Both the position numbers and the translations under genes were made by a program. A DNA stretch of 46,651 nt from Escherichia phage vB_EcoS-733R5: sequence record ON470608.1; one strand, written 5' to 3'. The notes beneath the pieces are model-generated. The model was not told the DNA's origin, ran no database searches, and was given only the letters and a program-made list of their open reading frames with translations. Shown in pieces: positions 1,009 to 42,317 of the stretch. Within the stretch, counting starts at the first letter, position 1. Every line of letters begins with the position of its first letter.

Positions 1009-1035
1009 GTCCTCTTAGTTAAATGGATATAACGA
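1009..1035. repeat. 27-bp direct repeat of the tRNA-Arg 5' end (one mismatch); candidate attL core
   Basis: gtcctcttagttaaatggatataacga here versus gtccccttagttaaatggatataacga at 42243..42269; it lies about 75 bp after the yfdC stop and marks the transition into AT-rich accessory DNA. Confidence 0.7.
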
Positions 1036-1346
1036 CTACAAATATAACCAACTGTTTTAAATGATAAAAAAAATTTCAATAAACTCCACCTGTACACATA
1101 ACTGCACACACTTTTGTTAGGTTGTATCCATATATGTATGGGTATTAAAAGTTGTCGGCATTTCGACTTTTTGAGACTGTGGGCGGTACTCTTTCTATCA
1201 TAAATACTCTATAGTTTGTTCAATGATGTTTCATGTTGTTCGATGGATGCCTACATGCTGTCTGTTACATCTTCCTTGGTTCGAAGATGTTGCTTAAAAA
1301 ATCAGTTCAAGTATGATTCTCATCCATAAAAGGGAAGAACTTCAAA

Positions 1347-1643
1347 ATGACAAACTCAGACAAAAATGTTAAAGCCGCACCGTTTGGCGTAACGAAAATC
1401 GAAAATGCTGAACATTTTCATGACGTTTTCGCAGACATAACTGGTGTTACTGAGTACAACATTGATGGCACTGTTTACGTAAACTTATCTTTCTTAAGTC
1501 ATCGCGTTTTTCCATACGCAGATGAGAGCGGTCATCCGTCAAGTTCAAGAGTCGACATCAAACGAGTTGCATCAGTAACTCTTACGCGTGACAAAGCAAT
1601 AGCCTTACGTAACGCACTTAATGCTAACCTATCAGATGAATAG
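1347..1643 (+). CDS. Hypothetical protein, first gene of an AT-rich three-gene cargo operon
   Basis: 98-aa ORF with a Shine-Dalgarno-like aaggga upstream of the ATG; AT-rich context; no family recognised. Confidence 0.5.
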   Translation: MTNSDKNVKAAPFGVTKIENAEHFHDVFADITGVTEYNIDGTVYVNLSFLSHRVFPYADESGHPSSSRVDIKRVASVTLTRDKAIALRNALNANLSDE

Positions 1644-1663
1644 TAAAATATGGGGCTAAAATA

Positions 1664-1909
1664 ATGACTATCAACACTATGTTTATGGTCTCTACATTTT
1701 CAACACCTACTGGCATAAGCACTGTCAACGCTGTTGATTTCGTAGCCTCTGAAGTCGCAAATGCGACACGAACTAACTTTACTAGCAGAGATACCTTTGC
1801 TGACTATCCCATGGATGAGATCTGTGCTTCTCTTGCTTCTGCTGACATCCTCATCCCGTCTCAACTCGCTACCGCTGATGAGATTGATGCATGGCTAATG
1901 GATCTGTAG
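1664..1909 (+). CDS. Hypothetical protein, second gene of the cargo operon
   Basis: 81-aa ORF starting 21 bp after the first gene; acidic C-terminus; no family recognised. Confidence 0.45.
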   Translation: MTINTMFMVSTFSTPTGISTVNAVDFVASEVANATRTNFTSRDTFADYPMDEICASLASADILIPSQLATADEIDAWLMDL

Positions 1910-2277
1910 ACGTTTCCGTCACTGCACACTTTAGAGCCAGATACAGGCAATTTCCTCCTAAAAGTAGGCAGAGGATTAGTACCTTTATCAACGAAGTCAT
2001 GAAAAACGGGTTTGCAAATCTTGAAGGTAGAAATAAGTTTTCCGATGATGTAAGCCCGGATGATCCTGATTTCAGAGCAAAAGTGCAGTTTGTAAACGAG
2101 CATTGCCTTTGGCACTACCATGTCGGCATTCATGATTATGAAATGGATAAGCCTTATGGTGATAGAACATCAATGTTCGTTTTACATTATAAAAGACATA
2201 ATCCTGCGAGCATTAGTGTGAACCACTTATCGCCGCACCCTCCATTCACGTTGCCTACGTTGGAAATGTTTACTTAA
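1891..2277 (+). CDS. Hypothetical protein, third gene of the cargo operon (start uncertain)
   Basis: 128-aa ORF overlapping the preceding gene by 19 nt, suggesting translational coupling; His-rich stretch WHYHVGIHDYE; ends immediately before a strong terminator. Confidence 0.45.
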   Translation: MANGSVDVSVTAHFRARYRQFPPKSRQRISTFINEVMKNGFANLEGRNKFSDDVSPDDPDFRAKVQFVNEHCLWHYHVGIHDYEMDKPYGDRTSMFVLHYKRHNPASISVNHLSPHPPFTLPTLEMFT

Positions 2278-2307
2278 AAAACCAGCCATTTATGGCTGGT
2301 TTTTTTA
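2276..2307. terminator. Bidirectional rho-independent terminator
   Basis: aaaaaaccagccatttatggctggttttttt: a GC stem flanked by an A-run and a T-run, between the convergent + operon and the - strand gene ending at 2342. Confidence 0.7.
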
Positions 2308-2341
2308 TATTGATTAGGTACTTATACAATTAACTATTGTT

Positions 2342-2668
2342 TTATATAACCGGGCATCCATCATCAGTAGGCCATGCGCGATTGATGTCGAATGTCACCA
2401 CCCCGACAACTGTAACATCATCCAAAGCCTCTCCTTCCAGAGTCTCACCGTCTCTTGTAATAAATGCCCGGCCCATAATTTTTGCAAAATCTGTGCCTCC
2501 GCCGTATTGAATTAAAACGGTATCTCCTTGCTTTGGTTTACCGGAGACATCGACTACGGTGTAACCAGTTTCTGTTTGCACGATCCGAGTATTAGGGCCG
2601 GTACCGCAGAGTTTATCGACGGTAAGCCGTCCTTCCACAAAGTCTGCTGCTGGCGATGGAAAGCCCAC
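2342..2668 (-). CDS. UmuD'-like / peptidase S24-like domain protein, apparently lacking the canonical Ser-Lys dyad
   Basis: N-terminus GFPSPAADFVEGRLTVDKL closely matches the UmuD segment GFPSPAADYVEQRIDLNQL that follows the autocleavage site; the C-terminal VVGVV resembles the S24 beta-core; the SGxSM catalytic motif is not evident. GTG start 2 nt after the upstream stop. Confidence 0.5.
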   Translation of the reverse strand: MGFPSPAADFVEGRLTVDKLCGTGPNTRIVQTETGYTVVDVSGKPKQGDTVLIQYGGGTDFAKIMGRAFITRDGETLEGEALDDVTVVGVVTFDINRAWPTDDGCPVI

Positions 2669-2670
2669 GA

Positions 2671-2910
2671 TTACAGCCCTCCATTTGGGTTGTAAAGCTG
2701 GAACGTGCGATCGTCACCTTCCTGCGTTGAGACGTCGCGGAATGTTGTCACGTAGCCCTCTATCCACTGATTAGCCTGCCGTGGCGACCAGTGCCAGTTA
2801 TATCTCTCCAGTTCCTGCAGAAATCGCCTGGTGGTGAGGATGCGCTTTCCGTTAGGCAGGATATCTATTGCCTTACGGCAGGCCGTCTCGATTTCGTATA
2901 AACGCGGCAT
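2671..2910 (-). CDS. Hypothetical small protein paired upstream of the UmuD'-like gene
   Basis: 79 aa from the ATG preceded by gggggaag; stop is 2 nt before the downstream GTG start; no family recognised. Confidence 0.4.
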   Translation of the reverse strand: MPRLYEIETACRKAIDILPNGKRILTTRRFLQELERYNWHWSPRQANQWIEGYVTTFRDVSTQEGDDRTFQLYNPNGGL

Positions 2911-3048
2911 ACTTCCCCCTGTCAAACTTACTGTATATAAACACAGTAAATGCATGTGTGCAGCAGATCAATATTGGCAGTGGCTATCAATGATCGGCGC
3001 TGACGTAACGCATTGATGCCTCAATTCGACTGGCAACATTGAGCAGGG

Positions 3049-3095
3049 AAATATTTATAAATCGTCTTCACCCCCCTCATATTACATCGGCTACC
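3049..3095. repeat. Copy A of an approximately 45-bp repeat encoding a serine-recombinase C-terminus
   Basis: The minus strand encodes ...GVKTIYKYFP...; direct repeat of the sequences at 3258..3304 and 3838..3882. Confidence 0.6.
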
Positions 3096-3257
3096 GACCC
3101 AATGTTTTAACTGCTCAGACCAGAAATATCTGGAAGCTTTAGGCATCTTCTTGGAAGATAGATGAGCGCAAAGACGCACACAGCAATGATGTTATGTAGT
3201 ATTTTCCCCTTGAGTGTGCCTGCTCAAGGGGATTTTTTATCGCCGTATTGTACTGGC

Positions 3258-3304
3258 AAATATTTGTAAATCGTCTTCACTCCCACGCCTGTCACATAGG
3301 CCAC
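3258..3304. repeat. Copy B of the recombinase 3'-end repeat
   Basis: aaatatttgtaaatcgtcttcactcccacgcctgtcacataggccac; the minus strand encodes ...VTGVGVKTIYKYLPV... Confidence 0.6.
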
Positions 3305-3322
3305 ACGCTACTGGACAGGCGC

Positions 3323-3745
3323 TTAGTCCGGTATGTTTCTCGCGCTACTACTGCTTACGTTAACGTCTGGTAATGCTCTAGCGGCGCGACGTAAAGCGGC
3401 GTTGAAAGCAATTATAGTGACCGGCCGGCGATGGTACTTCACACGGTTAGAATGACTCTGAAATAAATAAACATCTTCTGGATAGCGTTCTCTTCTACGA
3501 GCAATCATCGCCTCCACTGGAGGGGTTGATTTAACACGTAGCTCCTTCAGGTGACCCTGTTTTCGTATCAGTATCAAGTCACCATCAATATCATCATATC
3601 GAATACTCAGCAGCCTTCCAGCGCTTAAACCCGTGTGAAAAATTAACGCCCACAAGTCAGCCCATGTATCTGAGATGGAAACAAGATTGCTGTTAATAGT
3701 TAAAAATTGCTCAAAACTTATTGTTTTCTTACCGTTCACGAACAA
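3323..3745 (-). pseudogene. Tyrosine-recombinase-like fragment, apparently truncated before box II
   Basis: 140-aa ORF containing HTGLSAGRLLSIRYDDID (box-I-like); it terminates before any HxxR...Y region and runs directly into repeat copy B. Confidence 0.4.
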
Positions 3746-3822
3746 CCCAAACTGTTTTCAAAGCTGAATGAATTGATTAAGCCAAACGTAACATATCAGG
3801 AAAAGTAGTGAAATCTTTGTCT

Positions 3823-4054
3823 TCAAGTCGCCGGGAGGTACTTGTAGATTGTTTTCACGTCCACGCCTGTCACATCGGCTACCTGCTGCCGGGTTGCGCC
3901 CGTACCCAACATCCTGCGGCATCGCTCCACAACCTCAGTGGTCATTACCCGGCGCCGTCCACCTACTCTCCCCTGCTCCCTCGCTGCGGCTAAACCGGCG
4001 CGGGTACGCTCGACAATCAGCTCTCGTTCCATCTCTGCCATTATCCACAGTCGG
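3823..4054 (-). pseudogene. Serine recombinase (Hin/Gin/Pin-type DNA invertase) C-terminal fragment
   Basis: AEMERELIVERTRAGLAAAREQGRVGGRRR...QQVADVTGVDVKTIYKYL matches the invertase catalytic-domain end plus HTH; the N-terminal ~120 aa are absent; the 3' end is repeat copy C (3838..3882). Confidence 0.7.
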
Positions 4055-4229
4055 TTTTCGCTGTGATCCAGCGCGCTATCGACGAAATACGATTTTTTCC
4101 CGTGCGATCCAGGAATTCGCCTCCACCTCGGATAAGTGGATGCCGCACCGGCGCAGCGCTGACACAAAATCCTTTGTGTGCAGGTATTGAAAACCTTTGG
4201 AGTTGCGCAATACCGACTCGCGGAATGCC

Positions 4230-6183
4230 TGATTGATATCTGACTGACAGTGCATGATCTGCCCTCTGATAAACGTCGCGGTAGGGATACCCGTTACCGG
4301 GTACCCCCCGCACAGATCCCGGCGTGCGCTATTCACGCACCGGGCTCCTGCCTTGGGTGTCTGGCGGTGAACCGCTCCACAGGCCATGGATGCAGAACCC
4401 GAACCTTCGGCAGCCATACGGCTGCCAGTCTGTTTGCTTTCGTCCATGTCGTATCATCCTGCTGGCTCCTGCGCCTCAGCGCCCGTCGCCAGAGGTCTGT
4501 TACGTATATCCTGAACTTCCGCATCATGGGATAGTTGCCCGGGACTGAGTGGTAGTTCAGGTATCCCTGAACCACTCTCCTGAGCCATTTTCCCTGTTCG
4601 GGGATTGAGTAATGCCAGCGCTTTCGTAGTCCGTCCTTGATCGCTTTCAGTGTCGCCGTCATCCTGTCCCGGCGTGTCTTTCGTATCAGCATGAACCTGC
4701 CACTACGATCTTTCCCACTGATATGCGTGAACCCGAGGAAGTTGAACGTTTCTGGTTTACCTTTTCCCCTGCTGGCGCGGTTTTCGGCTGCGAAGCGGCC
4801 GAACTCCGTCAGTCGGGTTTTCTTCGGATGTACCGTGAGTCCGAACTCCTTCAGTCTGCGCTGCATGGCTATACGAAAGCATTGAGCGTCGATTCGCTTG
4901 TCGAACCCGATGACTATGTCATCTGCGTATCTGACCATGACCACATTGCCTGTGGCATGGCGGCGTCGCCACTGATGCGCCCACAGATCGAAGACATAGT
5001 GGAGGTAGATGTTTGCCAGCAGCGGCGAGATAACCGCACCCTGTGGGGTGCCTTCCTCCGATGCCCGCCATTCTCCTTCCTCTGAGGTCCCGGCTGTGAG
5101 CCACTTTCGTATGAGCCTGATTACCCTCTGGTCGCCGATTCTGTGTTCTATGAACCTGATTAGCCATTCATGGCTTACCTTGTCGAAGAACTGACTGATA
5201 TCGGCATCCAGTACCCAGTTTACATTGGTCCGAACCAGCCCTGTGGCCAGTGCGTCCAGCGCATTGTGCTGGTTTCGCCCGGGTCTGAACCCGTATGAAA
5301 ACCCCATAAAGTCATTTTCGTAGACTGCATTCAGGATCTTAACCAGCGCATACTGGACGATTTTGTCCTCCAGTGAGGCGATGCCGAGCGGGCGCTGTTT
5401 TCCATCCGCTTTCGGGATGTAGTGCCGCCTGCCGGGCTGAGCCCTGTAACTACCCTGATGAAGCCTCCGGTGCAGATCTGCTATGTTGACCTTCAGGTTT
5501 TCGGCGTAGTCCTTCCACCTGACACCATCAACTCCGGCAGCCGCTTTCCTGCTCAGGGAGAGGAATGCGTTCTCCAGTGCCTCTGCTGTCAGGAGGTGGA
5601 ACAATGCGGTAAACCGTTCTTTCTTCCGCTGCTTCGCAGCTTCCCGCACGCGTGACAGCCTCTGTGACATACTTTCCCGGCTCTGCGTCCGGCGCATGTG
5701 TGGCTGTTCCGCGTTTCCCTTGGCCCCGCTCCTTCGCTCCACTGACTCCGCTCCTTGCGGATTGTTCGCCAGATTCGCAGCTACTATGAGCGAGTCCGAC
5801 TTCTCCTCTCCGTACATCACCGGCTTCGGCTCCTCGCCTTCCCGGTGCGGGCCATCTCCGGCACTGGCAGATGGTCAGAGGGGAGATCTCCCGGTTCCCG
5901 CGTAAAGATCGTATTGACATGCCAGGGTCTCAGACCCCGCCGGGTCCATATGGCACTCGCAGTAACGCACCCTATGATGTTGCCTTCCGTAAACAGTACA
6001 ACGTCGGCACCCGGGAATTTAATATACATTTCGTGGCTCAATGGCTGGCCTGTCAACACCCCTGTCAACGCTTCGCCCCATACCTCACGGTATACAACGC
6101 ATGACTCGGGGACCCTGTGGATTGCTGGTCCTTCAATGGTCGGGGACTTTCACCCCTTGATCTTTACCGGTCTCCCGGCGCAC
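4230..6183 (-). mobile_element. Group II intron (3' boundary approximate)
   Basis: The minus strand begins GTGCGCCGGGAGACCGG (5' consensus GUGCG) at 6183, contains the RT/maturase ORF, and has a domain-V-like hairpin with a GTAA tetraloop at about 4278..4311. Confidence 0.7.
4333..5820 (-). CDS. Group II intron-encoded reverse transcriptase/maturase (LtrA-like)
   Basis: 495 aa with RT motifs (FxGxxxGxxxSPLLANIYL, YADD active site) followed by a maturase X-like domain. Confidence 0.85.
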   Translation of the reverse strand: MMYGEEKSDSLIVAANLANNPQGAESVERRSGAKGNAEQPHMRRTQSRESMSQRLSRVREAAKQRKKERFTALFHLLTAEALENAFLSLSRKAAAGVDGVRWKDYAENLKVNIADLHRRLHQGSYRAQPGRRHYIPKADGKQRPLGIASLEDKIVQYALVKILNAVYENDFMGFSYGFRPGRNQHNALDALATGLVRTNVNWVLDADISQFFDKVSHEWLIRFIEHRIGDQRVIRLIRKWLTAGTSEEGEWRASEEGTPQGAVISPLLANIYLHYVFDLWAHQWRRRHATGNVVMVRYADDIVIGFDKRIDAQCFRIAMQRRLKEFGLTVHPKKTRLTEFGRFAAENRASRGKGKPETFNFLGFTHISGKDRSGRFMLIRKTRRDRMTATLKAIKDGLRKRWHYSIPEQGKWLRRVVQGYLNYHSVPGNYPMMRKFRIYVTDLWRRALRRRSQQDDTTWTKANRLAAVWLPKVRVLHPWPVERFTARHPRQEPGA

Positions 6184-6252
6184 ACTGTTTTTATATACAG
6201 TAGTTATCGTCGCGAGATCATTCAAGCATTTTTGCCTTCCATGGCGTCAGTG

Positions 6253-9200
6253 CTACTGGTTGTTATCCAGCCAGTATTGCATCCATGCGTCAGCCATAAT
6301 ATTGCAGGCAAAGGTATATTCTGAGAATGTCGTTGAAATTTCTGAGAAGAAATCCAGATCCCACAGCTTAATCTGCCCATTGGTATTTGACCCACCGTAC
6401 TCATCAAAAGCATCCAGCAGGCGCTCAGCTGCTTCGAGGCAGGAGTTATCACCAGAATGCAGAAGAGGGTACAGCAGGAATCCAACCGTTGTCGGCTGCC
6501 CGCGGCGCGACTCCGCGATGCAGTAGTCCACTTCCTTCAGCCCACCGTAACCCGATACAGCATTTAACGCATAGGTTTCCATGTTTAGGACCGATGCCCG
6601 TCCCGCTGCTTTGCATCCGATCAGGTAGTTGTTCCAGGCATACACCTGATAATGCAGATAGCGACGCTTCGGAACATTCTCAGTGACGTTATCGGTAATA
6701 ATGTTTTTCACCCCGGCAAAATACGTACTGGATGAAAACTGACCGTCAACCATCGTCATCGCCGTAGCGTAGCTCCCGGAGGTATCCAGACCAGCAGCAT
6801 ACGCCATCGCCCAGGAACGGAACGCAGCAGCATAGAAGTTGCTGTTTGCCGAACCGACCGTACCGAATGCTGAATAGCAGTCTGCTGCCAGATTGCCGAT
6901 GGCCACTTTCAGTTCGGTTTGTTTTGCCGTGTCACCATTCAGCACCGCGAGCTTATAGAGCCACCACAGCGGAGGGAGTACCAGGCGGGAGGCAAACTGC
7001 AGCGACTTGGAATCAGCTGCGTTTCCGAGGTGAATGTTGCCGATACTTCCGTACCACGTTGTCGCCCACGCGGAGAACTTCGCATACACCGTCTCAAACG
7101 AGCCGATTTTCAGATGCAGCATGCGCACAATATCGCCGGCAATGGTGTTGAACATCCCGTTGCCGTTGTCGGTACTTGTCGCATCCAGCGTATTCCAGGC
7201 CGCAATACCGCTAATGACATCCCCCAGACGGCTGGCCAGTTTAGCCTGGCGGACGCGTGGGTACACAGATGACAGTGAAGCGAACCCAACAACAGGATTA
7301 AGTTCGACGTTAGACAATGCCGTAGTATCAGAAATGCTCTCGTTAAGGTTCATAGTGAATGAGACAGGCCACGCCCAACCCGCAGGAGCACCAAGGGTCG
7401 TTGTGGTCGATCCATATGTTCCTGCCGTCCACCCACCATCGAAACGTACATAGGATGTGGTTACTGTCAGCCCGGCGACTGGCGGCCTGTTACCAACAGT
7501 AGACGCTTCAGCAGAATCACGAATAGTATCGCCGCCTGCGTTACGGATAGACACAGAACGCAATACTGAATTGTCAGTCCAGATCGCGTTGTACTCGTTA
7601 CGATATGCTTTGGTCGCCGTTGAGTTAAGCTGAATGCGCGTCATACATGCAAACAGGGCATTAGCTGCCAGCGCAGATTGCAGGCGAGCCACAGCATCAA
7701 TCTGTACATACCCGTTTTTGAATACCCGAGTACGGTAGGTATGTTTAATCAACCGCGCCGCAATGGCCACGTTACCGGTAAGAGCGCCATTGTAGAAGAT
7801 AGTTTCTATTTCGGTGAATACCGGACCATCACTGATAATTTTGTACGCGTAGTCCGTATAACCCGCCGCGACCGTCGACCAGGCGGTGCCGGTTACCGTC
7901 GCATACAACTGCTGACAGATATTGGTATAGGTGATGCTGTCCCGCGTCAGTTTGTACGGCAGCCAGCCTACCACGCTGTCAAAACGCACCTGAGTCCCGT
8001 CATCGGCGGTTACCAGCAGACTGGTTGCGGTTTCCCGGTTCGTTCTGGTGTAGGAGGACGCATCCTGCGGTGTCGGGTAGGCCTTCAGCAGGTATTTTTT
8101 GGACGAGTTAGCCGGGATATTATCGAGGATAAGCAAATCCCCGCTGCGCAGGGAGCCATCAGCCCAGTAACTCAGGTTACGCCCCCGGCGCGGGTTAAAG
8201 TCTCCCTCTCCCGCCCACTGGGAGGGATATACCGTTCCGTCCGCATCCGTCACCACAATACAGCGGTCAGTCGGTACCTCACCCGCCTGGAATTTGCATT
8301 TTATCGCTACAGGGCGGCTTCCTGTTGCGTAATCAGTTGTGTTTTTAACCACAACCTCATAGCGGCGATACGTCGTTAAATCGTCAGTTGTCATTTTGGG
8401 CCCGTTGAACGTACCGGTTAATGTTACGTTTCCGTCAGTCGTCAGGGTGACGGCACCGGCGGCGAGTTTAAAAAGGTTGCAGAAGGTTTTTGTTGCGGAT
8501 ACAGATGTGACCTGACTGAACACGTAGCCTGCCAGCTTATCCACCACATACTGAATAATCCCCGCAGTGGTCAGCGCATAGCCTGCTGCCGTGACGTCCG
8601 CATTCAGGACAGCCAGAATCAGCATGCCCGTTGAGGCGTTGTAGGTGATGCCCCGTGTGGTTCCCCCGGCAATCGTGGTGGGAGTGAAGGCGTCAAACAC
8701 TCCTGCGCGGTCACGAATGATGCGGGTGGTGTCAGATGGCAGAGCACCGGGCAGCGTGACCGGGATGTTCATCGTCGTGCGACCGGTGGTCGTGTTGATA
8801 CCCAGGCCGTTGATACCCGCTGGCTGCAGCACAAAATCGACATACGGCGTTGTCAGGACGGCGCCGGCGGTAGATTCGCCTTCCAGCAGAGCTATGCTCT
8901 GTGAAGTACCAAGTCCGTCGGTCATCGTCATGACCAGGCGGCGCACGTTCGTGGAAAGGGACAGCTTATTCAGCGTGAAAATACTGCCGCCGCTCATCGT
9001 GGCACTGTAAGCCACCTGTGACCCATAGTTACCTACGGAGCCGATATTGGTCTGGTAGTCCCGGAGTTCGAGATTCAGCGCCCGCAACCTGTCAGCGGCA
9101 TACGCCTGAGCATTTGCAGCAATATTCACGGCATTGGCGTTTGACTGCATTTTCCCAACATCAAGAGACAGTTTTTTTGTCACCTGAATAGTCGCCGTAC

Positions 9201-10290: not shown

Positions 10291-10365
10291 GTTTTTTGCT
10301 CCAAAACGGTGTTCGCCCAAACGAGGGTTTGAGCGAAAGAAAAGTTGAAAGGGATTTTTTTGGTA

Positions 10366-32026: not shown

Positions 32027-32040
32027 GTTTTCTCCACTGT

Positions 32041-33021: not shown

Positions 33022-33033
33022 ATCATCTCCACG

Positions 33034-33411
33034 TCAGGCAACTGCACGAAAACGTCGGATGGTGATTTCTACTTTCCCTTTCTTCACGATGTTCCCCCAC
33101 TCCACCAGCATGCGCTTAACCTGACTGTCGTCTTCCCAGACGCCTGTTAGAGTCAGGGCATCGAACAGCGCTTTGTTGTAGTTATCGATATCCCGACGGC
33201 GCTGATCCGGCGGATACAACACTATATGAACCTCAGCCAGATCAGTGGATGGCCGGGGAACGGCCCGCAGTTGCTCAATAATCGCCGCTCTCGCTGCCTG
33301 CTGGAACTTGCGCCCTGTCTCGCTTACCAGATGCCTGCCTTTCAGCGGTCCCTTGCTCGGGGCGCGCCAGTAACTATTTACGCTCGGTGGAAATGGTAAA
33401 GTCAGTTTCAT
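33034..33411 (-). CDS. rusA: Holliday-junction resolvase RusA
   Basis: 125 aa; LPFPPSVNSYWR...RRRDIDNYNKALFDALT matches the RusA motifs as recalled. Confidence 0.8.
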   Translation of the reverse strand: MKLTLPFPPSVNSYWRAPSKGPLKGRHLVSETGRKFQQAARAAIIEQLRAVPRPSTDLAEVHIVLYPPDQRRRDIDNYNKALFDALTLTGVWEDDSQVKRMLVEWGNIVKKGKVEITIRRFRAVA

Positions 33412-33420
33412 TTAGCCCCC

Positions 33421-34230: not shown

Positions 34231-35210
34231 GTGCGGAACCCCGAGTTTTCTGGCAATGAGTAATCAACCCCGTCGAAACTGGCTCGCGAAATGGACGCCT
34301 CCTGGCGGGAGCTATTGAGTGGAGCAGATAGTTTTAACGACAGCTCATCCCATTTTTCCCGAAGCTTCGACGGGCTGAGTACGTTTTTACACCAGAACGA
34401 ATCTTTGTTGGCGCGCTTAAAAAGTGAGCAAATTTGTTTATGAGTTCTCCCGTCCTGCATCACCATCAGGCGAACCTCATTCGCCCATGCGGTCCAGTTT
34501 GGTTCTTTAGGGCGAACTACCTCTCCATCACTTTCAGCAGCCAGTTCGTACATGCTGATAATTTTTCCCCAAATGAACTCGGCGCAGGTTAAATCGTCCT
34601 GGCTGCCCCACTGCCGCTTTGCAGCGCTGTACACCACCGCGTCAGGATGTCGTGACAGAAATTCATCAGCAGAGCCCTGTTCGTCCGGTTGCGAAGCGTC
34701 CGGACAAGAAGGATTTATATCTGATGGATCAGTAGTTGATTTTACTGACGGATCCCCACCAGATTCTGACGGGTCAAAACTGGTTTTTTTGATGGATTCC
34801 GACGCCTCAAATTTTGAGGGGTCAATTTTTGACGCATCAGATTTTGACGCATCAGATTTTGACGTGTCAGATTTTGACGTGTCAGATTTTGATGTGTCAG
34901 AAACTGACAGGTGAGAAAATGCCGCTTTCTGTAGTTTGGAAACGTTGAGCTGGTAGACGTTCGATGCATTACGGTTGCCGTTGCGGCGCTGTGTGCGAGT
35001 GAGCCACCCCTCTTTCTCAAGTGCAGCTATCGCCGTTCTGACAGTACTTTCACCAGCGCCAATCTGACGGGATATGGTCGCAATAGAAGGCCAGCTAACA
35101 CCCTCATCGTTGCTGAAGTCAGCCAGGCGCGCCATGATTGCCACGCTGGATAGCTTCATCCCCGAAGATGCACAAGCGTCCCAGACGTATCCTGTTAATT
35201 TAGTGCTCAT
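34227..35210 (-). CDS. Replication initiation protein with internal iterons
   Basis: N-terminal winged-helix-like region, central SDTSK pentapeptide repeats encoded by 15-bp DNA repeats, and a C-terminal domain; lambda O-like organisation. Confidence 0.65.
   Translation of the reverse strand: MSTKLTGYVWDACASSGMKLSSVAIMARLADFSNDEGVSWPSIATISRQIGAGESTVRTAIAALEKEGWLTRTQRRNGNRNASNVYQLNVSKLQKAAFSHLSVSDTSKSDTSKSDTSKSDASKSDASKIDPSKFEASESIKKTSFDPSESGGDPSVKSTTDPSDINPSCPDASQPDEQGSADEFLSRHPDAVVYSAAKRQWGSQDDLTCAEFIWGKIISMYELAAESDGEVVRPKEPNWTAWANEVRLMVMQDGRTHKQICSLFKRANKDSFWCKNVLSPSKLREKWDELSLKLSAPLNSSRQEASISRASFDGVDYSLPENSGFRT
34801..34905. repeat. Iteron array (about seven tandem 15-bp repeats, gacgtgtcagatttt-type); candidate ori
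   Basis: Directly visible tandem repeats inside the replication initiator gene. Confidence 0.7.
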
Positions 35211-35219
35211 GATCGTCCT

Positions 35220-35555
35220 TTATTTCTCTGAATTTACGTCTGAATTGCTCGAGGGGGCTAAAGCATTCATGCTCGTACCCTTCACGCAGGTATATAACGC
35301 GCTGTGTCTGGGGCTCCCAGCGTATGACCCTGACCGGGACACCGTAGTGATCTCTGAACCATCGGTTGAGCTCTCGCATACTTTCTCCGCCTGGCCGTTA
35401 AAGTCCCCTACCACCCACTGAGCAAACTGGTAGCAGACAGGCTCGAACCCGCCTGGTACTCTTACCCCATACACGAACTGCACCGGTCCTGCTCCACCAG
35501 GAACTGGCCGCGCTACAAGTTGCGACCTGCGGTATTGTGTTGATAAACTGTTCAT
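35220..35555 (-). CDS. Hypothetical protein
   Basis: 111-aa ORF with a ggaga SD between the cII-like and replication genes; unusual composition. Confidence 0.3.
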   Translation of the reverse strand: MNSLSTQYRRSQLVARPVPGGAGPVQFVYGVRVPGGFEPVCYQFAQWVVGDFNGQAEKVCESSTDGSEITTVSRSGSYAGSPRHSALYTCVKGTSMNALAPSSNSDVNSEK

Positions 35556-35579
35556 GCGTTAGTAATCTCCACTGATAAC

Positions 35580-35628
35580 GACACGCCACGACGCCAGGAG
35601 CTGCAACTCGCTGGCGTCACTTCTTTTT
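35580..35628 (+). ncRNA. Candidate oop-like antisense RNA overlapping the 3' end of the cII-like gene
   Basis: Plus-strand hairpin GACGCCAG...CTGGCGTC followed by acttcttttt, with a possible promoter (ttgata/agtaat) about 50 nt upstream. Confidence 0.35.
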
Positions 35629-36078
35629 GCGTGAAAATAACGTGATAATTGCGGCAATCTCTTCTTCCCGAGCTGCCAGGTGGCGGCGGTGATGCACCAT
35701 GATTTCTTCGGCCTCATGCCTTTCAATAACGCCATCTTCAAGTGCCTGTTCGATAATCTGATCAACCTGCCCCCTGGCGGCAGAGGTACGCATTGCCCGG
35801 CTAAACAAGTCCACTCGGTCCAGTTCTTCCAGGTGCGGAACATCCACCAGCAGAGCACCACGGCGGCGAGCGAAGTAATCAGCCAGTAACGACGTATTGG
35901 AAATGTCCTCCATCGCTTCCAGCTCGCTGACTTCGAAGAAACGACAGCCGTTTTTCTCGTAAAGGTTGTTGTTAAACTGCGTCACCGTCATTCCCAGTGC
36001 GCCAGCCATTGCTTCGCGCCCACCTGGATATGCTTTGCACATCGCTTTGACGGCTTCTTTGAGGTTTGGCTCTACCAT
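35617..36078 (-). CDS. CII-like regulatory protein
   Basis: 153-aa ORF immediately downstream of cro in the early-right operon; the family assignment is tentative. Confidence 0.4.
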   Translation of the reverse strand: MVEPNLKEAVKAMCKAYPGGREAMAGALGMTVTQFNNNLYEKNGCRFFEVSELEAMEDISNTSLLADYFARRRGALLVDVPHLEELDRVDLFSRAMRTSAARGQVDQIIEQALEDGVIERHEAEEIMVHHRRHLAAREEEIAAIITLFSRKKK

Positions 36079-36103
36079 ATTGATTTTCCTTTTGTAGTTA
36101 CTT

Positions 36104-36301
36104 TCAAGCAGCTGAATCTGTAGCCTTTTGGTAAAGGCTGGCGTCGTACTTCAGCTTGCCTTTCGTAATTCGTTCGATGACGAATGCTTGTTTTTGAGGG
36201 ATGACTTCACCCCATCGGCAAACTGCCGGGTGGGAAATACCAAGAACACTTGCGGTTTTTGATACGCCTCCGAAGTGTTCGATAACTTCTGATTTACGCA
36301 T
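36104..36301 (-). CDS. Cro-like HTH repressor
   Basis: 65 aa with HTH (VSKTASVLGISHPAVCRW); divergent from the cI-like gene. Confidence 0.7.
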   Translation of the reverse strand: MRKSEVIEHFGGVSKTASVLGISHPAVCRWGEVIPQKQAFVIERITKGKLKYDASLYQKATDSAA

Positions 36302-36330
36302 GGTTCCTCCTGGTTAACTTACGCCTTAAA

Positions 36331-36397
36331 GGTAACAAAAGGTACATTAAATAGCAAACAACAGTTACAAGGATTCCATGTAACATTGGTTACATGA
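36331..36397. promoter_or_regulatory. Immunity operator region (OR-like)
   Basis: A GGTAACAAAAGGTACAT site at 36331..36348 and the perfect palindrome CATGTAACattgGTTACATG at 36378..36397 overlapping the cI start codon. Confidence 0.55.
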
Positions 36398-37053
36398 AAA
36401 CAGAGATGAAAGACCGAATAAGATCCCGTCGAGTCCAGCTCGACATAACACAGCAGACCCTAGCTAAACGCTTGGGGGTAAGCCGTGTTTCCGTAACAAA
36501 ATGGGAGAGCGGCACTACTAAACCTGATGGTGAGAATCTCCATCAGCTGGCGGTGGCGCTGCAGACAACTCCAGAATGGATTCTTTACGGTCGAGGTGAG
36601 GAAACGCCGGATGATACAAAAGTTATTCCGTTCCTTAAGCCACCCACGGCAGTTCCTATTATCTCCGCTGTTCAAGCTGGGATGTGGACTGATACTTATG
36701 CATGCTCAAGGCTTTCTGATGTGATTTCATGGACGCAAACCACTGCAAACGTTTCTAATGAAGCATTCGGACTGGTAGTTCGCGGGGAGTCTATGACTAA
36801 CCCTCATGGTCTGCCATCCATCCCAGAAGGATCGATCGTTATTGTTGAACCGCACTATGGTCAATTGGATGACCTTTACGGAAAAATTGTAGTGGCAATA
36901 CTCGACGGCTCTGCTGAAGCTACCGTTAAAAAGCTGGTATGGGATAGCCCTTTCGCATACTTGATGCCACTTAACCCTGCCTTTAAACCCATCCCGATAG
37001 ATGGTAATTGCCGGATTGTTGGTAAAGTGGTTCAGATTACCCAAAACATTTAA
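36394..37053 (+). CDS. CI-like repressor (HTH-XRE plus S24 LexA-like peptidase domain)
   Basis: N-terminal HTH (QQTLAKRLGVSRVSVTKWESG) and C-terminal S24 domain with Ser (RGESM) and Lys (VKKL). Confidence 0.85.
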   Translation: MKTEMKDRIRSRRVQLDITQQTLAKRLGVSRVSVTKWESGTTKPDGENLHQLAVALQTTPEWILYGRGEETPDDTKVIPFLKPPTAVPIISAVQAGMWTDTYACSRLSDVISWTQTTANVSNEAFGLVVRGESMTNPHGLPSIPEGSIVIVEPHYGQLDDLYGKIVVAILDGSAEATVKKLVWDSPFAYLMPLNPAFKPIPIDGNCRIVGKVVQITQNI

Positions 37054-37066
37054 GTTACTCATTTCT

Positions 37067-37095
37067 AAAGCCAGATCTCCTTCTGGCTTTTTTTT
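37067..37095 (+). terminator. Rho-independent terminator after the cI-like gene
   Basis: agccagatctccttctggct followed by tttttttt. Confidence 0.7.
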
Positions 37096-37102
37096 CAATC
37101 CT

Positions 37103-37156
37103 CAGGTAACAAAAAGTACATAGCTCTCTTGACCATATTGGTAACTAAAGGTACAT
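37103..37156. promoter_or_regulatory. Two further operator-like sites (OL-like)
   Basis: aggtaacaaaaagtacata and ggtaactaaaggtacattt repeat the 17-bp site seen near cro. Confidence 0.5.
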
Positions 37157-37599
37157 TTAAATCACATCACGAGTACCGGTAGTTACATACTCTGGTGTGG
37201 TAGTGAGCATTACGGCATATGGCACATGTGCCGCAGCGGCCTGAGAATCCCTTTATCCATGCCTCTCAGAACAACCGGAATGTGCAAGCTAAGTGTTCAG
37301 GCACGACGTGCGCCCCACCAGCGCGGAGAAAAGGTGTGACACCTCGGAAGAGACGAGGACACAACCAAAAGAGCGCTGGCATGCAAAAAACATCTCGCAG
37401 CCGTTGCGGTACCAAAAGCCAGGATGGAACGGCAGAACGCGGTAGTGCTCTTTTTGTTGTGTGGAGAACTAACGTACCGCCATTGCAGTGGCGGTCCCCT
37501 ATCAGCAAGAAATTTTTACCAGCTATTCACCCACTCTCATGGGTTGGGTTGCTGCACCCTAAATTTACGCGTTGCAGCGCGTCAGATGGAGAACAAAAG

Positions 37600-37899
37600 A
37601 TGGCTAAGACAGCAAAACAACTGATTAAACAGGCGTACGAAATAGCCAAAACTATGCCACCAGAACAGGCAGCAATCATCAAGGAACTGGCTACCGTCCT
37701 CGATGTTTCGAATGTAGCTCTGCGCCAGACGCGCACCGAACGTGACGACCTTCTCGCAGAGGTCAAATCCTGGGCGAAGGAGTGTGATCGTCTGACCGAG
37801 CGACACACCAAGAAGCGCACAAATCTGCATGTCCTCGAAGCAATGCGCGATTTGAAAGCAATTTGCCCCACCAGCTTCCGTAACGTGGAGGCTCTCTGA
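37600..37899 (+). CDS. Hypothetical early protein
   Basis: 99 aa from the ATG preceded by ggaga; predicted helical; the ORF track extends the frame upstream, but that part looks non-coding. Confidence 0.45.
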   Translation: MAKTAKQLIKQAYEIAKTMPPEQAAIIKELATVLDVSNVALRQTRTERDDLLAEVKSWAKECDRLTERHTKKRTNLHVLEAMRDLKAICPTSFRNVEAL

Positions 37900-38684
37900 T
37901 GGCTAAAGACTCAAAGCTGGTATATGGCGCGAGTGGCAAAACGAACGTTTTGACGTTCGAACCTGAAAATCTGCACTTGGTCACCGACAAAACGCACCCG
38001 CTTTACGATGAGCGTATCCACCTGCCTATCAGCGAGGCAATGGTGCTGAACATCATGGACCAGGGCGTTCTTGAGCCGATTATCGTCTGGAAAGACCCGG
38101 AGACAGGGCTGTCTTGTGTAGTCGATGGTCGCCAGCGTGTGCGCCATACACTGGAAGCCAACAAGCGACTGTTGAAAGAGGGTAAAGAACCGTTACTGGT
38201 TCCAGCAGTCGCTAAACGTGGCTCCGCCGTTCGCATGGCGCAGGCGATGGTAAGTGCTAACGAAATCCGCCAGGCAGATACGCCACTGGGCCGAGCAAAG
38301 AAAATGGCTGATGCGCTGGAGCGCGGGCACGACGAGGACGATTTAGCGCTGATGTTTGGCTGCAGCGTTCAGACCGTTCGAGCAACGCTCTCCCTTCTCG
38401 ATGCCACCCAGGCCGTCAGGGAAGCGGTGGAGGCAGGCACAGTTACCGTTACCCAGGCGCGTCAGCTGGCATCTCTTAAACCCGAAGAGCAGCGGGAGAA
38501 GGTCTCTGAAATAGAAGCGGCAACTGCTGGCACAACAGGCCATGAAAAAGCCCGGCGTCAGCGTCAGATCCTCGGTGATGCAAAGCCGCGCCTGAAAACC
38601 CGCAAAGAAATCATCAAAGCCCTGGAATCAGCCGAGGGTGAGTATGCAAGCGCACTTCGTTGGGTACTTGGGGAGGCGGTATGA
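37899..38684 (+). CDS. ParB-like nuclease domain protein
   Basis: 261 aa; the N-terminal region with VVDGRQR resembles the ParB/sulfiredoxin motif; an HTH-like segment follows. Confidence 0.6.
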   Translation: MAKDSKLVYGASGKTNVLTFEPENLHLVTDKTHPLYDERIHLPISEAMVLNIMDQGVLEPIIVWKDPETGLSCVVDGRQRVRHTLEANKRLLKEGKEPLLVPAVAKRGSAVRMAQAMVSANEIRQADTPLGRAKKMADALERGHDEDDLALMFGCSVQTVRATLSLLDATQAVREAVEAGTVTVTQARQLASLKPEEQREKVSEIEAATAGTTGHEKARRQRQILGDAKPRLKTRKEIIKALESAEGEYASALRWVLGEAV

Positions 38685-38815
38685 ATATTGATCCTGAGAA
38701 TTACAGCAAATACACCCTACGTCGGTTCGCCGCCCTGTTAGATGTGATCTGCTGGGTGCTGATTGCCGTAGTAACCGTTGGTATCTGCATGTTTATTGAA
38801 TGGTGGGCAGCATGA
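38681..38815 (+). CDS. Small membrane protein (not in the ORF track)
   Basis: 44 aa with a hydrophobic core (ALLDVICWVLIAVVTVGICMFIEWW); ATGA overlaps on both sides. Confidence 0.35.
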   Translation: MNIDPENYSKYTLRRFAALLDVICWVLIAVVTVGICMFIEWWAA

Positions 38816-39156
38816 GTAAATCACTGAACGCACGTTGCATCCGCCGCTGGGAAGTTGAATTTAAACCATTCTGCGACTCAAAGCGCAATCCGTACTGGCG
38901 CAAGCGTGACCTTCGTGGGTATATCCGCGAAGCGGCGCTTACCACCGCTTACAGCATGGTCGAGAGCATGGCTGAACGTAACGCCAAAGTTGACTTTGAC
39001 GGCTCCCTACAAGGCTGGACTCCTGAGTTCTCAGAATGGTACCGGGAGCGTCGTGAAGTGTATCTCAAAGAAGCCCGCGACCAACTGAATGAAGAAGCTA
39101 CCAACGACGAGATCGACGAAGAAATAGAGAACGAGCTGGAGGCCTGGAATGACTGA
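38812..39156 (+). CDS. Hypothetical phage protein
   Basis: About 114 aa from MSKSL; translationally coupled to its neighbours. Confidence 0.45.
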   Translation: MSKSLNARCIRRWEVEFKPFCDSKRNPYWRKRDLRGYIREAALTTAYSMVESMAERNAKVDFDGSLQGWTPEFSEWYRERREVYLKEARDQLNEEATNDEIDEEIENELEAWND

Positions 39157-39706
39157 TATCGCCACATTCACTAATGAGCAATTAATCGCCGTGTGCCGTG
39201 CTGACGTGGCGGAAATGTCGAAGTTTTTAAAAGAGGGTGAATTCAGCAATCCGTCCCGCGCAGCTATGTATTTTCGTATTACTGAAATCGCATTGGCAGC
39301 GCTGATGGGGGAGTTCTCATTTGCTCGCAATCAGGTTCGCCGTGAACACGCTGAATGGTCACAGGCTACCTTCGGCAATGTGGGCCCGGTTGGCCCGCTG
39401 AAACACCTCAGCAAAGAAGCGCTGGAAGCTGCAGCAGAGCCTGGTGACCTCTCCGAGTGGGCTGATATGCAATTCCTGATGTGGGATGCCCAGCGTCGTG
39501 CCGGTATCACCGACGAACAGATTACCCAGGCGATGATCGAAAAGCTGGCAGTGAACAAACAGCGCGAATGGCCGGAACCAAAAGATGGGGAGCCAAGGCT
39601 GCACATCAAAGAACAACTTCGTAAAAAAGTTGACCGCTGTGATGTTTGTACTGAAGGGGCTCGCGGCGGGTGTGGGACATGTATTTTTAACGGTAATTTT
39701 GAATGA
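39149..39706 (+). CDS. MazG-like / DUF550-type nucleotide pyrophosphohydrolase
   Basis: 185-aa ORF; family recognised by overall resemblance only; C-terminal CxxC...CGxC. Confidence 0.45.
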   Translation: MTDIATFTNEQLIAVCRADVAEMSKFLKEGEFSNPSRAAMYFRITEIALAALMGEFSFARNQVRREHAEWSQATFGNVGPVGPLKHLSKEALEAAAEPGDLSEWADMQFLMWDAQRRAGITDEQITQAMIEKLAVNKQREWPEPKDGEPRLHIKEQLRKKVDRCDVCTEGARGGCGTCIFNGNFE

Positions 39707-39713
39707 GGTGCTT

Positions 39714-39899
39714 ATGACTTCTAAGGATTTTATGGAAGAGAAAGAAGTATTCGAATTGCTGGGGAAGAAAAAAACAGCTGTGTGGCGTTTACGTAAAGAG
39801 CATGGTTTTCCTCAACCTGTTCTCACCTATCCAACACGCTATAGCAGGAAAGCAGTTTCAGAATGGTTGGAGAGAGGTGGAGTTAATAGCCACAGATAA
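39714..39899 (+). CDS. AlpA-family HTH regulator / excisionase-like protein
   Basis: 61 aa; EVFELLGKKKTAVWRLRKEHGFPQPV resembles the AlpA/Xis-type HTH. Confidence 0.55.
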   Translation: MTSKDFMEEKEVFELLGKKKTAVWRLRKEHGFPQPVLTYPTRYSRKAVSEWLERGGVNSHR

Positions 39900-39996
39900 A
39901 TTAACAAAAAGTGAAACACAATGGCTTTAAGTATGTTTAGTTACATTTAAAGCCATACAGAACACTAACCTATTATATTTCAATATATACCCATCA

Positions 39997-40857
39997 CTAT
40001 TCTTCCATCCCACCTTCATTTATTAAGCCCTGAGACAACCCATAGGTTGCTAACAGTTCTTTTATACTACCCTTTGTTTTTTGAAAATCCAAAGCAAGCC
40101 TTTCTGCAGACTTTGTATCATTGATCATATTGTTTTCACCAATCAACTCACTCCTAAGCTTATTTAATACATCGGTATAAAAGTAATTGTGCCAATTATA
40201 AATATAAATCTCACCAAATTTATCAAAACCTTCCTTTGAAGCAGGAATCACCTCAATTATTTTTTTGCTTATCTCTCCTTCATTTAGAATGTTGTGTTTT
40301 CTAGCTAAGGGGATTGACAAAAAACGAAGAGATATTAGAGCAAACAAAGATATTGATTCATATATTTCAAAAGATTTAAGTGTGCTTTCACTCAAATATA
40401 ATTTCATAGTATCCTTATCAAAACCATTATACTCTTCTAACTTTTCATTTATTTTTAATGGCCTTGTGATAGCTTCCATAAAGTCATTAAGTCTTTGGTC
40501 ATCTCCCATTTTCATTATCTCTTTGACATTAAGCATCTGCATATATTGCACCGCCATAGATAAACCAATTAGGTATTTACGAATCTTAATTAAATTCTCA
40601 GCTGATTCGAATCTTTTTGACTGGAGAACAGAATCCCTGCTTGTTCTCACATTGGAAAGATAATTCCTTATTTGCTCCAGTTCTTTCTCGCCCTCTCTCA
40701 CTTCAGATTTAAATTTTTCAAGTTTTGTATCAAACTTGTGTTCAATAGATTTTGTAAGAAATTTTCCAATACTATCTCTAAATAAGTAGCCAACTCCAGA
40801 GATAAATGCTGCTGATGTAACGATACTAACAAGCCATTTTAATAATTCGCTATTCAT
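39997..40857 (-). CDS. AT-rich cargo protein with an N-terminal hydrophobic helix
   Basis: 286-aa ORF between the excisionase-like gene and the integrase; Lys/Glu/Ile-rich; no family recognised. Confidence 0.5.
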   Translation of the reverse strand: MNSELLKWLVSIVTSAAFISGVGYLFRDSIGKFLTKSIEHKFDTKLEKFKSEVREGEKELEQIRNYLSNVRTSRDSVLQSKRFESAENLIKIRKYLIGLSMAVQYMQMLNVKEIMKMGDDQRLNDFMEAITRPLKINEKLEEYNGFDKDTMKLYLSESTLKSFEIYESISLFALISLRFLSIPLARKHNILNEGEISKKIIEVIPASKEGFDKFGEIYIYNWHNYFYTDVLNKLRSELIGENNMINDTKSAERLALDFQKTKGSIKELLATYGLSQGLINEGGMEE

Positions 40858-40887
40858 GATGACCTCGACAAACCTAACAAAAAGAAT

Positions 40888-42056
40888 TTATCTTAACTTA
40901 TTTACTTGCCAAAATATTTTGTCCGCGTACTTTTCGTATGCTTCCTTCTGCTCCACCAGCCAATCGTGTTTGTTATAAACCGCCATCACTCCCCCTAACT
41001 CATGCCCCAGCATCTTTTCAGTGACGTGAGGCATAACCCCTTCCCCTGATAAATTCGTCACCAGCGAACGCCTGAAGTCATGTGTTCGCCACTCTGGTAT
41101 ATCAATTTTATCCCTTAATTTTTTCATATAGAGATTTGCTGACGAGCGATCTATAGGCTTGTCGAGTTCCTGGCCGGGAAACAGAACATCATTTCCAGCA
41201 TTGAGGAGCCTTTCAACAAAAGGTTTCACCTGGTCAAACACCGGGCGACGGATTACGTTACCCATCTTTGAATGTTCTGCTGGAGTCGTCCAGATAAGAT
41301 CATCCATATTGAACTCACTGGCAGTAGCAAGGCGCAGCTCTGATAGCCTGGCTCCCCAAAGCAAAAGCAGCTGATGAAGCACCTTGTTGGAGGTAACGAT
41401 CTTGTTGTTCTCCAGCGCCAGCCAGATTTTAGCCAACTCGGTATACGTGAGAACACGGCTACCCACATCAGGTTTTTTTCCAATGGTCTTAACACTTAGC
41501 TTCAGGACTTCGCACGATGGGATCAACTGGCGACTGATACACCAGTTCATGACGGAACGTAGCTGCAGAAGAAGCACCCTGGCCTTTTTGCTGTTCTTCT
41601 TTTCCTGCTTATCAAAGAAACGCACCCATGCCGAAACAGGAATGTTTACTACCGGAGCGTCCGGGAATTCTGTGTACATCGTGTTGTACACAACTGACTT
41701 GTACAGCGTCTGAGTGTTCGGCTTCAGCGTTTCAACATACTTGCCCCACCACTGATCCAGGCACTCTTTGAGAGTCAGCTCGCCATCTTCTTTGGCAAAA
41801 TAATTTTTCGGGTTTAGCCCCTTGAGGTACAATTCGCGCATCTCACCGACGACAACGCGCGCCTCCTTGAGAGACATAGCGGGATAGCGGCCAATGGAGA
41901 GGCGAACGGGCTTACCGTTCCAGCGATAACGAAACTGGAATGTGATCGTGCCTGTGGGAGTTATGCGTACACTCAGCCCGTCACCATCTGTGACCTCAGC
42001 TGCGCCGCTGTATGGCTTAGCATTGATGCTACGGAGTTTGGTATCACTAAGGGCCA
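40888..42056 (-). CDS. Tyrosine integrase (P4-like family), likely GTG start
   Basis: N-terminal ALSDTKLR...PYSGAAEVTDGDGLSVRITP and C-terminal HDFRRS...VMAVYNKH are integrase hallmarks; there is no ATG near the conserved N-terminus, so the GTG at 42056 is proposed. Confidence 0.75.
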
Positions 42057-42242
42057 CGGCTCTGTATCCTGTACACACTGAAATTCTGCATTCTGTACTC
42101 AATGTGTACGCAATGGCAAGTGAACGAAGTGATTTTCTAAGCGAATCGATGCGAACGGAAAGGAAATAAAAGGAATGAAATGCTTGATGGTACGGGGAAT
42201 GATAGGATAACATGCAACACAAGCTGAACGCTTAAAAATCAG

Positions 42243-42317
42243 TAAGTTCTATGTCCCCTTAGTTAAATGGATATAACGAGCCCCTCCTAAGGGCTAATTG
42301 CAGGTTCGATTCCTGCA
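42243..42317 (+). tRNA. argW: tRNA-Arg (anticodon CCU)
   Basis: 75-nt cloverleaf-compatible sequence with a GTCCCCT/AGGGGAC acceptor stem, CCU in the anticodon loop, a GTTCGATTC T-loop and a 3' CCA. Confidence 0.9.

Follow-up and report, generated by a model that had tools for sequence, protein, structure and literature searches.

The DNA analysed here is a window of 46,651 nucleotides (nt) from the record ON470608.1 of Escherichia phage vB_EcoS-733R5, and all coordinates below refer to this whole window. Its left flank consists of yfdC (1-933) and its right flank of argW, the gene for tRNA-Arg(CCU), followed by cscB, cscK and cscA, which places csc genes beyond argW as the initial annotation of this locus had described. 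Between these flanks lies a prophage body of 41,217 bp (1036-42252; delimited by the annotation of ON470622.1 and the empty-site join described below) with lambdoid regulatory genes, HK97-like head genes and siphovirus-type tail genes. The sole tRNA gene in the window is tRNA-Arg(CCT), located by ARAGORN at 42253-42327 on the plus strand with a concordant Rfam match; the feature had first been drawn to end at 42317, which is short of the last tRNA nucleotide at 42327. Directly 5′ of this tRNA is a P4-like tyrosine integrase gene (int) that is read away from it. The locus is very probably the product of site-specific recombination of a lambdoid prophage into the 5′ part of argW, whereas most tRNA-targeting elements use the other end of their gene.

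Prophage ends and the empty site

The sequence GTCCCCTTAGTTAAATGGATATAACGA matches the window exactly at 42253-42279, where it forms nt 1-27 of the tRNA, and with a single mismatch (T for C at tRNA position 5) at 1009-1035 on the plus strand, and no third copy was found in the window when up to three mismatches were allowed. The repeat, which had been identified from the outset as tRNA nt 1-27, spans the 5′ strand of the acceptor stem, the entire D arm, nt 26 and the first base of the anticodon stem; both copies are preceded by a common T (1008 and 42252) and their identity ends past nt 27. When 600-1035 is joined to 42280-42750, the resulting 907 nt are 100% identical to many E. coli chromosomes, in which this segment holds yfdC and tRNA-Arg, and therefore the two copies are the true ends of the prophage. 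The same join, which is the comparison with prophage-free E. coli that the initial annotation had proposed as a means to define attB, confirms that the prophage fills the yfdC-argW interval and places attB within the first 27 nt of argW, so that tRNA nt 28 onward and all DNA to the right of it belong to the host. The left copy (1009-1035) is the attL core; it is the host version of tRNA-Arg(CCU) nt 1-27 and retains the native T5. The right copy (42253-42279) is the attR core and forms the beginning of a hybrid argW (42253-42327, plus strand), which is an intact tRNA-Arg(CCU) gene with a phage-derived C at position 5 (ARAGORN, Rfam and the repeat search).

Two other readings of the repeat were weighed. 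The left copy could be a chance match or an unrelated tRNA fragment, as had been considered when the locus was first described, in which case the prophage would end elsewhere; the repeat is indeed only 27 nt long. However, no match is expected by chance (0 in 100 shuffles), excision of the DNA between the repeats recreates exactly the junction present at 100% identity in many E. coli chromosomes, and an identical junction layout is found in a laboratory lysogen of a homologous phage, which leaves this explanation with next to no probability. Scarcely better placed is an ordinary 3′-type integration viewed from the other side, in which the phage would carry the whole tRNA, or its 3′ part, and the 27-nt piece would be a remnant left in the host. 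Many phages carry whole tRNA genes, and the full tRNA here directly adjoins phage DNA. Yet in prophage-free genomes the yfdC side continues without a break through tRNA nt 28-75 into the downstream flank, at 100% identity, and these parts are thus host DNA; the attP of a homologous virion and of metagenomic phage genomes holds nt 1-24 only.

Separation of argW from its upstream DNA is an infrequent state of the E. coli chromosome. Among the 5,426 complete E. coli genomes, 5,190 have argW directly joined to the 49 nt that precede it, and in 236 (4.3%) the two are separated. An int-attR junction of the type found in phage PA2 occurs in 206 of the 5,426 genomes, and that of the window (at least 99% identity) in 11. 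In strain YJ4 (NZ_AP023230.2) the int-attR stretch is 100% identical to that of the window. A second record, ON470622.1 (Escherichia phage vB_EcoS-716R3, partial genome), is in reverse complement 99.97% identical to the window (14 mismatches and one gap); it holds the same prophage with the same host flanks and was rejected as independent evidence. This record is labelled as a phage genome, yet it contains the host genes yfdC, argW, cscB, cscK and cscA (window 1-933 and 42769-46651), and its ends are therefore not those of the phage.

The integrase module and the crossover interval

The integrase gene occupies 40888-42057 on the minus strand and encodes 389 amino acids (aa) when read from a GTG codon at 42057. 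Its product matches the Pfam families Arm-DNA-bind_3 (6.7e-19, 68.3 bits, cut-off 27) and Phage_integrase (3.6e-18, 66.4 bits, cut-off 27.1) as well as PHROG 1, integrase (2.6e-69), and the catalytic R...H-x-x-R...H...Y residues are present in the segments GARLSEL, THDFRRS, LGHELGG and AVYNK (read by eye in the translation, with no structural alignment). The closest homologues are integrases of Klebsiella prophages (98.5% identical), followed by that of E. coli 720632 (95%). Identity is 85% to the integrases of the Stx2-converting phage 86, ArgO145, PA2, P27 and more than 100 records named "Stx2a-converting phage", and the phage 86 record labels its homologue "bacteriophage P4 like integrase". 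The Klebsiella records are prophage extracts trimmed at att and were rejected as independent att evidence. In GenBank the gene of the window starts further upstream (40888-42213, 441 aa) with an N-terminal extension that is missing in homologues; an AGGA motif lies 9 nt upstream of GTG 42057, and the integrase of E. coli 720632 has its annotated start (MALSDTK) at the equivalent codon. The GenBank start is thus probably 52 codons too long and GTG 42057 the true one. Counted from this codon, the gap to the first nucleotide of the tRNA (+1) is 195 nt and the two genes are divergent, which agrees with the original description of an integrase 5′ of the intact tRNA and transcribed away from it. On the other side of the integrase, a 61-aa protein of the HTH_17 family (39714-39899, plus strand, reading towards int) is a probable excisionase: its Pfam match (E = 1.3e-5) is just under the gathering score, its PHROG match is "excisionase and transcriptional regulator", and it shares 61% identity with the small DNA-binding protein that adjoins int in ArgO145, at a position where other Stx phage records name an excisionase or Xis.

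The 195 nt between integrase and tRNA (42058-42252) constitute the P arm, which contains three arm-type repeats (TGTACAC 42070-42076, TGTACTC 42094-42100 and TGTACGC 42105-42111). A promoter scan found on the minus strand a promoter-like site (TTGCCA 42119-42114, 18 nt, CAGAAT 42095-42090) that overlaps these repeats and is the candidate int promoter. Integrase genes divergent from a tRNA have been proposed to be autoregulated through a promoter that overlaps the recombination region (PMC2951348), and the position of this putative promoter fits such autoregulation. The P-arm repeats and the block GGCAAGTGAAC are nearly invariant in 16 loci that were compared, which come from six genera (Enterobacter, Erwinia, Pantoea, Phytobacter, Xenorhabdus and Salmonella), the Stx2 phage 86 and one metagenome bin. 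At the other end of the prophage, the P′ arm (1036-1110, plus strand) holds two further repeats, TGTACAC at 1091-1097 and TGCACAC at 1103-1109. All att variants that were compared, which are those of Stx2 phage 86, PA2, E. coli 720632, Erwinia typographi and the IMG/VR loci L052, L058 and L059, have a TGTACAC-like pair at about +83 to +103 from the tRNA +1.

Homologous phages provide both the free and the integrated state of this module. In the circular complete genome of Stx2 phage 86, where int lies in the middle of the record, the integrase gene is followed by a spacer of equal length and like layout, by GTCCTCTTAGTTAAATGGATATAA (tRNA nt 1-24), by tGAa and by non-tRNA DNA, and this int-core-P′ arm stretch is an intact attP. 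The same order of int, P arm, core and P′ arm is found in a metagenomic viral contig (L054). In the laboratory lysogen WG5::PA2, one end reads int (minus strand), argW (plus strand) and dsdC, and the other yfdC, native promoter, tRNA nt 1-24 and phage DNA. The record of ArgO145 annotates an att of 25 bp, a 2024 preprint gives a "24 bp" att for argW prophages, and papers on O157:H7 and O121 tabulate argW Stx2a prophages as "argW - prophage - yfdC"; a search of the literature by phrase found no paper that places the integration site of Stx phages at the 5′ end of argW.

The prophage of the window has the features of this module, i.e., direct repeats of at least the first 24 nt of the tRNA between yfdC and argW and a divergent int behind a spacer of about 195 nt with TGTACNC repeats, and it is a further, non-Stx member of the known argW 5′-end integration module. 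It shares with the argW Stx2a phages (86, ArgO145, PA2 and the prophages of O157:H7 EC4115 and TW14588) the attB in the first nucleotides of argW, the divergent order of int and tRNA, the spacer length, the TGTACNC arm repeats, the position of a -35/-10 pair, the integrase (85% identical) and a homologous Xis (61%). In contrast to these phages, which are short-tailed Sepvirinae with stx, it is a non-Stx prophage with an HK97-like head and siphovirus-type tail genes, and its integrase module is nearest to that of Klebsiella prophages. The core identity extends to nt 27 here and to nt 24 in the Stx2a phages, and its phage copy of the tRNA start has C5 whereas theirs has T5, so that lysogeny alters the tRNA sequence here.

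Scans of viral and metagenomic sequence yielded a negative result that speaks against this account of the present prophage. The exact attP junction pattern (P arm, core and non-tRNA base) occurs in none of the IMG/VR or JGI metagenome contigs, and the same scans found no excised or virion form of the exact phage; its attP is therefore derived from attL, attR and the homologues. A scan with core plus P′ arm had as its one match a different E. coli prophage that includes host flank (L008), and one with the Klebsiella-type P′ arm had no match. IMG/VR locus L058, in which a -35/-10-like pair stands upstream of the core, was considered as an attP and rejected, as neither an integrase nor arm repeats lie upstream; an attL in a different host is the likelier reading.

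Base differences between phage and host copies of the core narrow the crossover. The window has T5 in attL and C5 in attR. In E. coli 720632, T2 and T5 stand in attL, where the match to the tRNA extends no further than nt 23, and C2 and C5 stand in attR; in PA2, T25 of the phage is in attL and C25 of the host in attR. In an attP-like junction of Erwinia typographi the tRNA identity also stops at nt 23. Because phage and host base differences sort to opposite sides of the exchange, these polymorphisms place strand exchange within tRNA nt 6-23, the D-arm region, provided that close relatives cut at the same place. C5, the single mismatch of the phage core to the E. coli attB, would accordingly lie within the core and outside the exchange region. 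Within this interval, the best dyad in attB and four attP variants has half-sites at nt 7-13 and 22-28, which enclose an 8-nt overlap on the D loop (nt 14-21), and this makes the D loop flanked by the D-stem dyad the likely crossover overlap; its score of 23/35 exceeds the 18-20 of other placements by a small margin, which tells against reading too much into it. The Erwinia typographi junction just mentioned (NZ_JRUQ01000067.1, L017) is an observation of its own: in a bacterial contig, int and the P arm are followed without interruption by tRNA nt 1-23, which has T4, and by a P′ arm that includes arm repeats. It belongs either to an element that is excised or episomal or to a tandem array, of which it would be the inner junction.

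In the proposed pathway, the circular attP would consist of int, the 195-nt P arm with its three TGTACNC repeats, a rightward σ70-type promoter, a copy of tRNA nt 1-27 with C5, and the P′ arm with two arm sites. The P4-like integrase would act on this attP and on nt 1-27 of argW in the chromosome, exchanging strands between nt 6 and 23, with the D loop as the most plausible site. For excision, the integrase would require the candidate excisionase at 39714-39899 as its partner, and the native argW would be restored.

Promoter and 5′ end of argW in the lysogen

Integration by this route would strand the native argW promoter at attL beside a dead 27-nt tRNA stub, and the only full argW, at attR, would be a hybrid with its 5′ end, and presumably its promoter, taken from the phage. 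The orphaned native promoter-like region (960-1008, plus strand) was recognised by eye, with a -35-like TTACCC (969-974), a 17-nt spacer, a -10 element TATACT (992-997) and the GC-rich CATGCCGC before the tRNA +1; a simple promoter scan did not call it. On the phage side, a candidate argW promoter lies at 42184-42213 on the plus strand and is composed of a -35 element TTGATG (42184-42189), an 18-nt spacer, a G at -14 (42206) and a -10 element TAACAT (42208-42213), with a predicted start near 42220 and a leader of about 33 nt. In the 16 loci, the pattern TTG, 18 nt, G.TA..AT, together with AAC, makes up almost the only columns with at least 90% conservation in about 100 variable nt, and it stands at a fixed distance from the tRNA +1. 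This pattern fits a σ70 promoter with a partial extended -10 element, and on this evidence the phage probably brings a promoter that drives argW in lysogens.

This proposal is tempered by the fact that the candidate is weak by consensus, scoring 8/12, and was not listed by the scan because the threshold was 9/12. A hairpin with the appearance of a terminator (1154-1175), located after attL, is unsupported by folding (z = 0.24), and the idea that it insulates the prophage from the orphaned argW promoter was set aside as speculation. The conserved bases could instead be sites for recombination proteins (IHF, Xis or the core of integrase), the tRNA being read through from another phage promoter. 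Such sites do occur in att arms, and the reverse complement of cTTGAt resembles in some loci the ATCAA core of the IHF consensus. However, the Salmonella, Pantoea septica and Erwinia typographi loci lack an intact ATCAA, and because only TTG is invariant a σ70 promoter is preferred over an IHF site. Moreover, the G at -14 with TA..AT past an 18-nt spacer fits a promoter, and no upstream gene reads towards the tRNA, int being on the opposite strand. The recombination-site explanation is thus rather unlikely.

Slightly less likely again is that integration proceeds as described and the phage supplies no working promoter, argW being silent or poorly expressed and AGG codons being covered by argU, whose tRNA-Arg(UCU) reads AGA and AGG. 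The low score of the candidate is in keeping with this alternative, as is a mismatch in the only argW copy of one strain (E. coli 720632, see below), which suggests that selection can be relaxed. Against it stand the -35/-10 bases and their spacing, invariant over 16 diverged loci while their neighbours vary, the perfect cloverleaf retained by the phage nt 1-27 in nearly all variants, and codon usage, since AGG is used 5.7 times per 1000 codons in the prophage and 0.66 in the small host flanks. A phage-borne promoter remains the preferred reading, and the richness in AGG is compatible with a phage interest in the supply of tRNA-Arg(CCU), although it is only suggestive in this regard.

The donated 5′ end also changes the tRNA itself. 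Native argW has T5 in nearly all of the 5,426 complete E. coli genomes, and the functional copy of the window differs from it by that base alone. The initial annotation had correctly assigned the mismatch to the acceptor stem, where position 5 pairs with G68, and had taken the left copy as the deviant one; T5 is in fact the wild type and C5 the variant, found in the functional copy on the right. The tRNA of the lysogen consequently has C5-G68 versus the native U5.G68, and its cloverleaf is the minimum-energy fold (-29.0 kcal/mol, with -26.0 for native argW). C5 stands beside the integrase in most loci of other genera. In the attL of the IMG/VR loci L052 and L059, which have a native promoter that is not that of E. 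coli and, in one of them, a yfdC homologue upstream, the host-side copy is C5, and C5 is therefore native in some other Enterobacterales. Together with the closeness of the Klebsiella prophages, this suggests that the module probably evolved in other Enterobacterales.

A more drastic case is E. coli 720632 (NZ_CP025842.1; L051 39368-39442), which contains a decayed prophage with an integrase cut by IS1 and in which the sole argW starts with GCCCCC, resulting in a C2.A71 mismatch in the acceptor stem. Phage-supplied 5′ ends can thus alter the tRNA and possibly impair it.

Related integration sites and the meaning of the layout

A review names three places of integration in bacterial tRNA genes, the anticodon stem-loop, the T stem-loop and the 3′ end, and states that "with very few exceptions" the native promoter is retained (PMC8371274); bacterial tRNA integration sites are presented likewise in PMC6563490. 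In a survey of 1,273 integrase-tRNA pairs, 736 had a tRNA followed by an integrase in the same orientation and 438 were convergent, and the divergent arrangement together with the same-orientation, integrase-first one made up less than 8% (PMC2951348). Compared with this general rule the layout is unusual, as had been stated at the outset; it is not new for argW, where the Stx2a phages sit in the same place. The divergent 5′-end layout is a recognised minority class, rare in general, of which argW is a well-used example. In a survey of one genome per species, relatives of the integrase with 77-94% identity were found in the six genera listed above, and all relatives of at least 77% identity with enough upstream flank and an intact junction have a divergent tRNA-Arg(CCT) at the same spacing.

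More distant relatives (51-62% identical) are found some 180 nt upstream of the exonuclease I gene sbcB, in divergent orientation, in Gilliamella (L022 and L024) and Symbiopectobacterium (L026), and sbcB is a known Stx-phage site. The integrases associated with dusA are also located upstream of and divergent from their target, and these elements replace the 5′ end of dusA and bring putative -35 and -10 elements with them (PMC4482086); unlike argW, dusA and sbcB are protein-coding. The wider integrase clade may thus target the 5′ ends of genes as a trait of the lineage rather than by an accident of argW. Similarly, in the Mesorhizobium loti element and for archaeal pTN3-like integrases, attB is in the 5′ part of a tRNA gene and an element-borne promoter is required (PMC8371274; PMC6563490), with other hosts and other integrase lineages; this likeness is drawn via later reviews only.

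The opposite end of argW serves a second group of elements. KplE1/CPS-53, Sf6, HK620 and Kapi1, which have integrases of the IntS type, target the same tRNA gene and likewise rebuild an intact tRNA, but they do so with a 3′-end core of 16-17 nt (CTGCAGGGGACACCAT), have int downstream in the tRNA orientation and keep the native promoter. In the window this 3′-end att site, CTGCAGGGGACACCA (42313-42327, plus strand), is free, as judged by comparison with the published 16-17-nt cores (PMC2951348; PMC8787464). Both ends are occupied in O157:H7 TR01 (NZ_CP033605.1; L060 3001-5759), where the 75-nt argW lies between two integrases, a divergent one of the 5′ type upstream and IntS downstream, and neither of its flanks is native.

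Three further features of the prophage were noted. Searches of Pfam, PHROG and PADLOC gave no match for a 286-aa open reading frame (ORF) rich in AGG and AGA (39997-40857, minus strand) that lies between the candidate excisionase gene and int. Stx phages lack a gene in this place, and the ORF may be a cargo or defence gene. At 4333-6150 (minus strand), GenBank annotates a "retron-type RNA-directed DNA polymerase". This reverse transcriptase (RT) ORF of 495 aa (RVT_1, 3.9e-45) contains 18 AGG codons, its PADLOC matches are to generic RT, group-II-like and UG17 models with none to a retron, and an Rfam match to group II intron D1-D4 (RF02005, 184.5 bits) covers 5925-6150 directly upstream; the protein looks like that of a group II intron instead. 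Just downstream of this RT, a 69-aa fragment annotated as a Pin-like serine recombinase (3824-4033, minus strand) may be what is left of an invertase close to the tail-fibre region.

With the repeat at nt 1-27 and the predicted crossover at nt 6-23, the prophage falls outside the classes of Williams 2002 (anticodon loop, T loop and 3′ end, as given in PMC8371274). A broader interpretation, in which this integrase clade would constitute a fourth class of tRNA sublocation, with crossover in the D loop flanked by the D-stem half-sites and donation by the element of a promoter and the 5′ third of the tRNA, and in which lysogeny would rewire the sole tRNA-Arg(CCU) gene and perhaps raise AGG decoding, is regarded as doubtful. 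If it were true, lysogeny would put a phage promoter in the place of one that has a GC-rich stretch ahead of the start and would edit the acceptor stem from U5.G68 to C5-G68, and better decoding of AGG could serve AGG-rich prophage genes, including those of the Stx2a phages in O157:H7.

In all, the locus does not change the current understanding of site-specific recombination. It offers an E. coli case, with exact coordinates, in which a tRNA-targeting phage takes the front of its target and not the back, and to the known module the present comparison adds a putative crossover interval, a conserved candidate promoter carried by the element, a probable origin for base 5 and a possible link to the relatives at sbcB. 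The layout is relevant to prophage-boundary software that expects displaced 3′ tRNA fragments, to the curing or deletion of prophages in a manner that spares argW, and to the effect of lysogeny on the decoding of rare codons. The same module brings Stx2a phages into argW of the high-virulence O157:H7 and O145 lineages, and strains with a split argW probably rely on a phage promoter for their only tRNA-Arg(CCU) gene, in which acceptor-stem bases may be specified by the phage.

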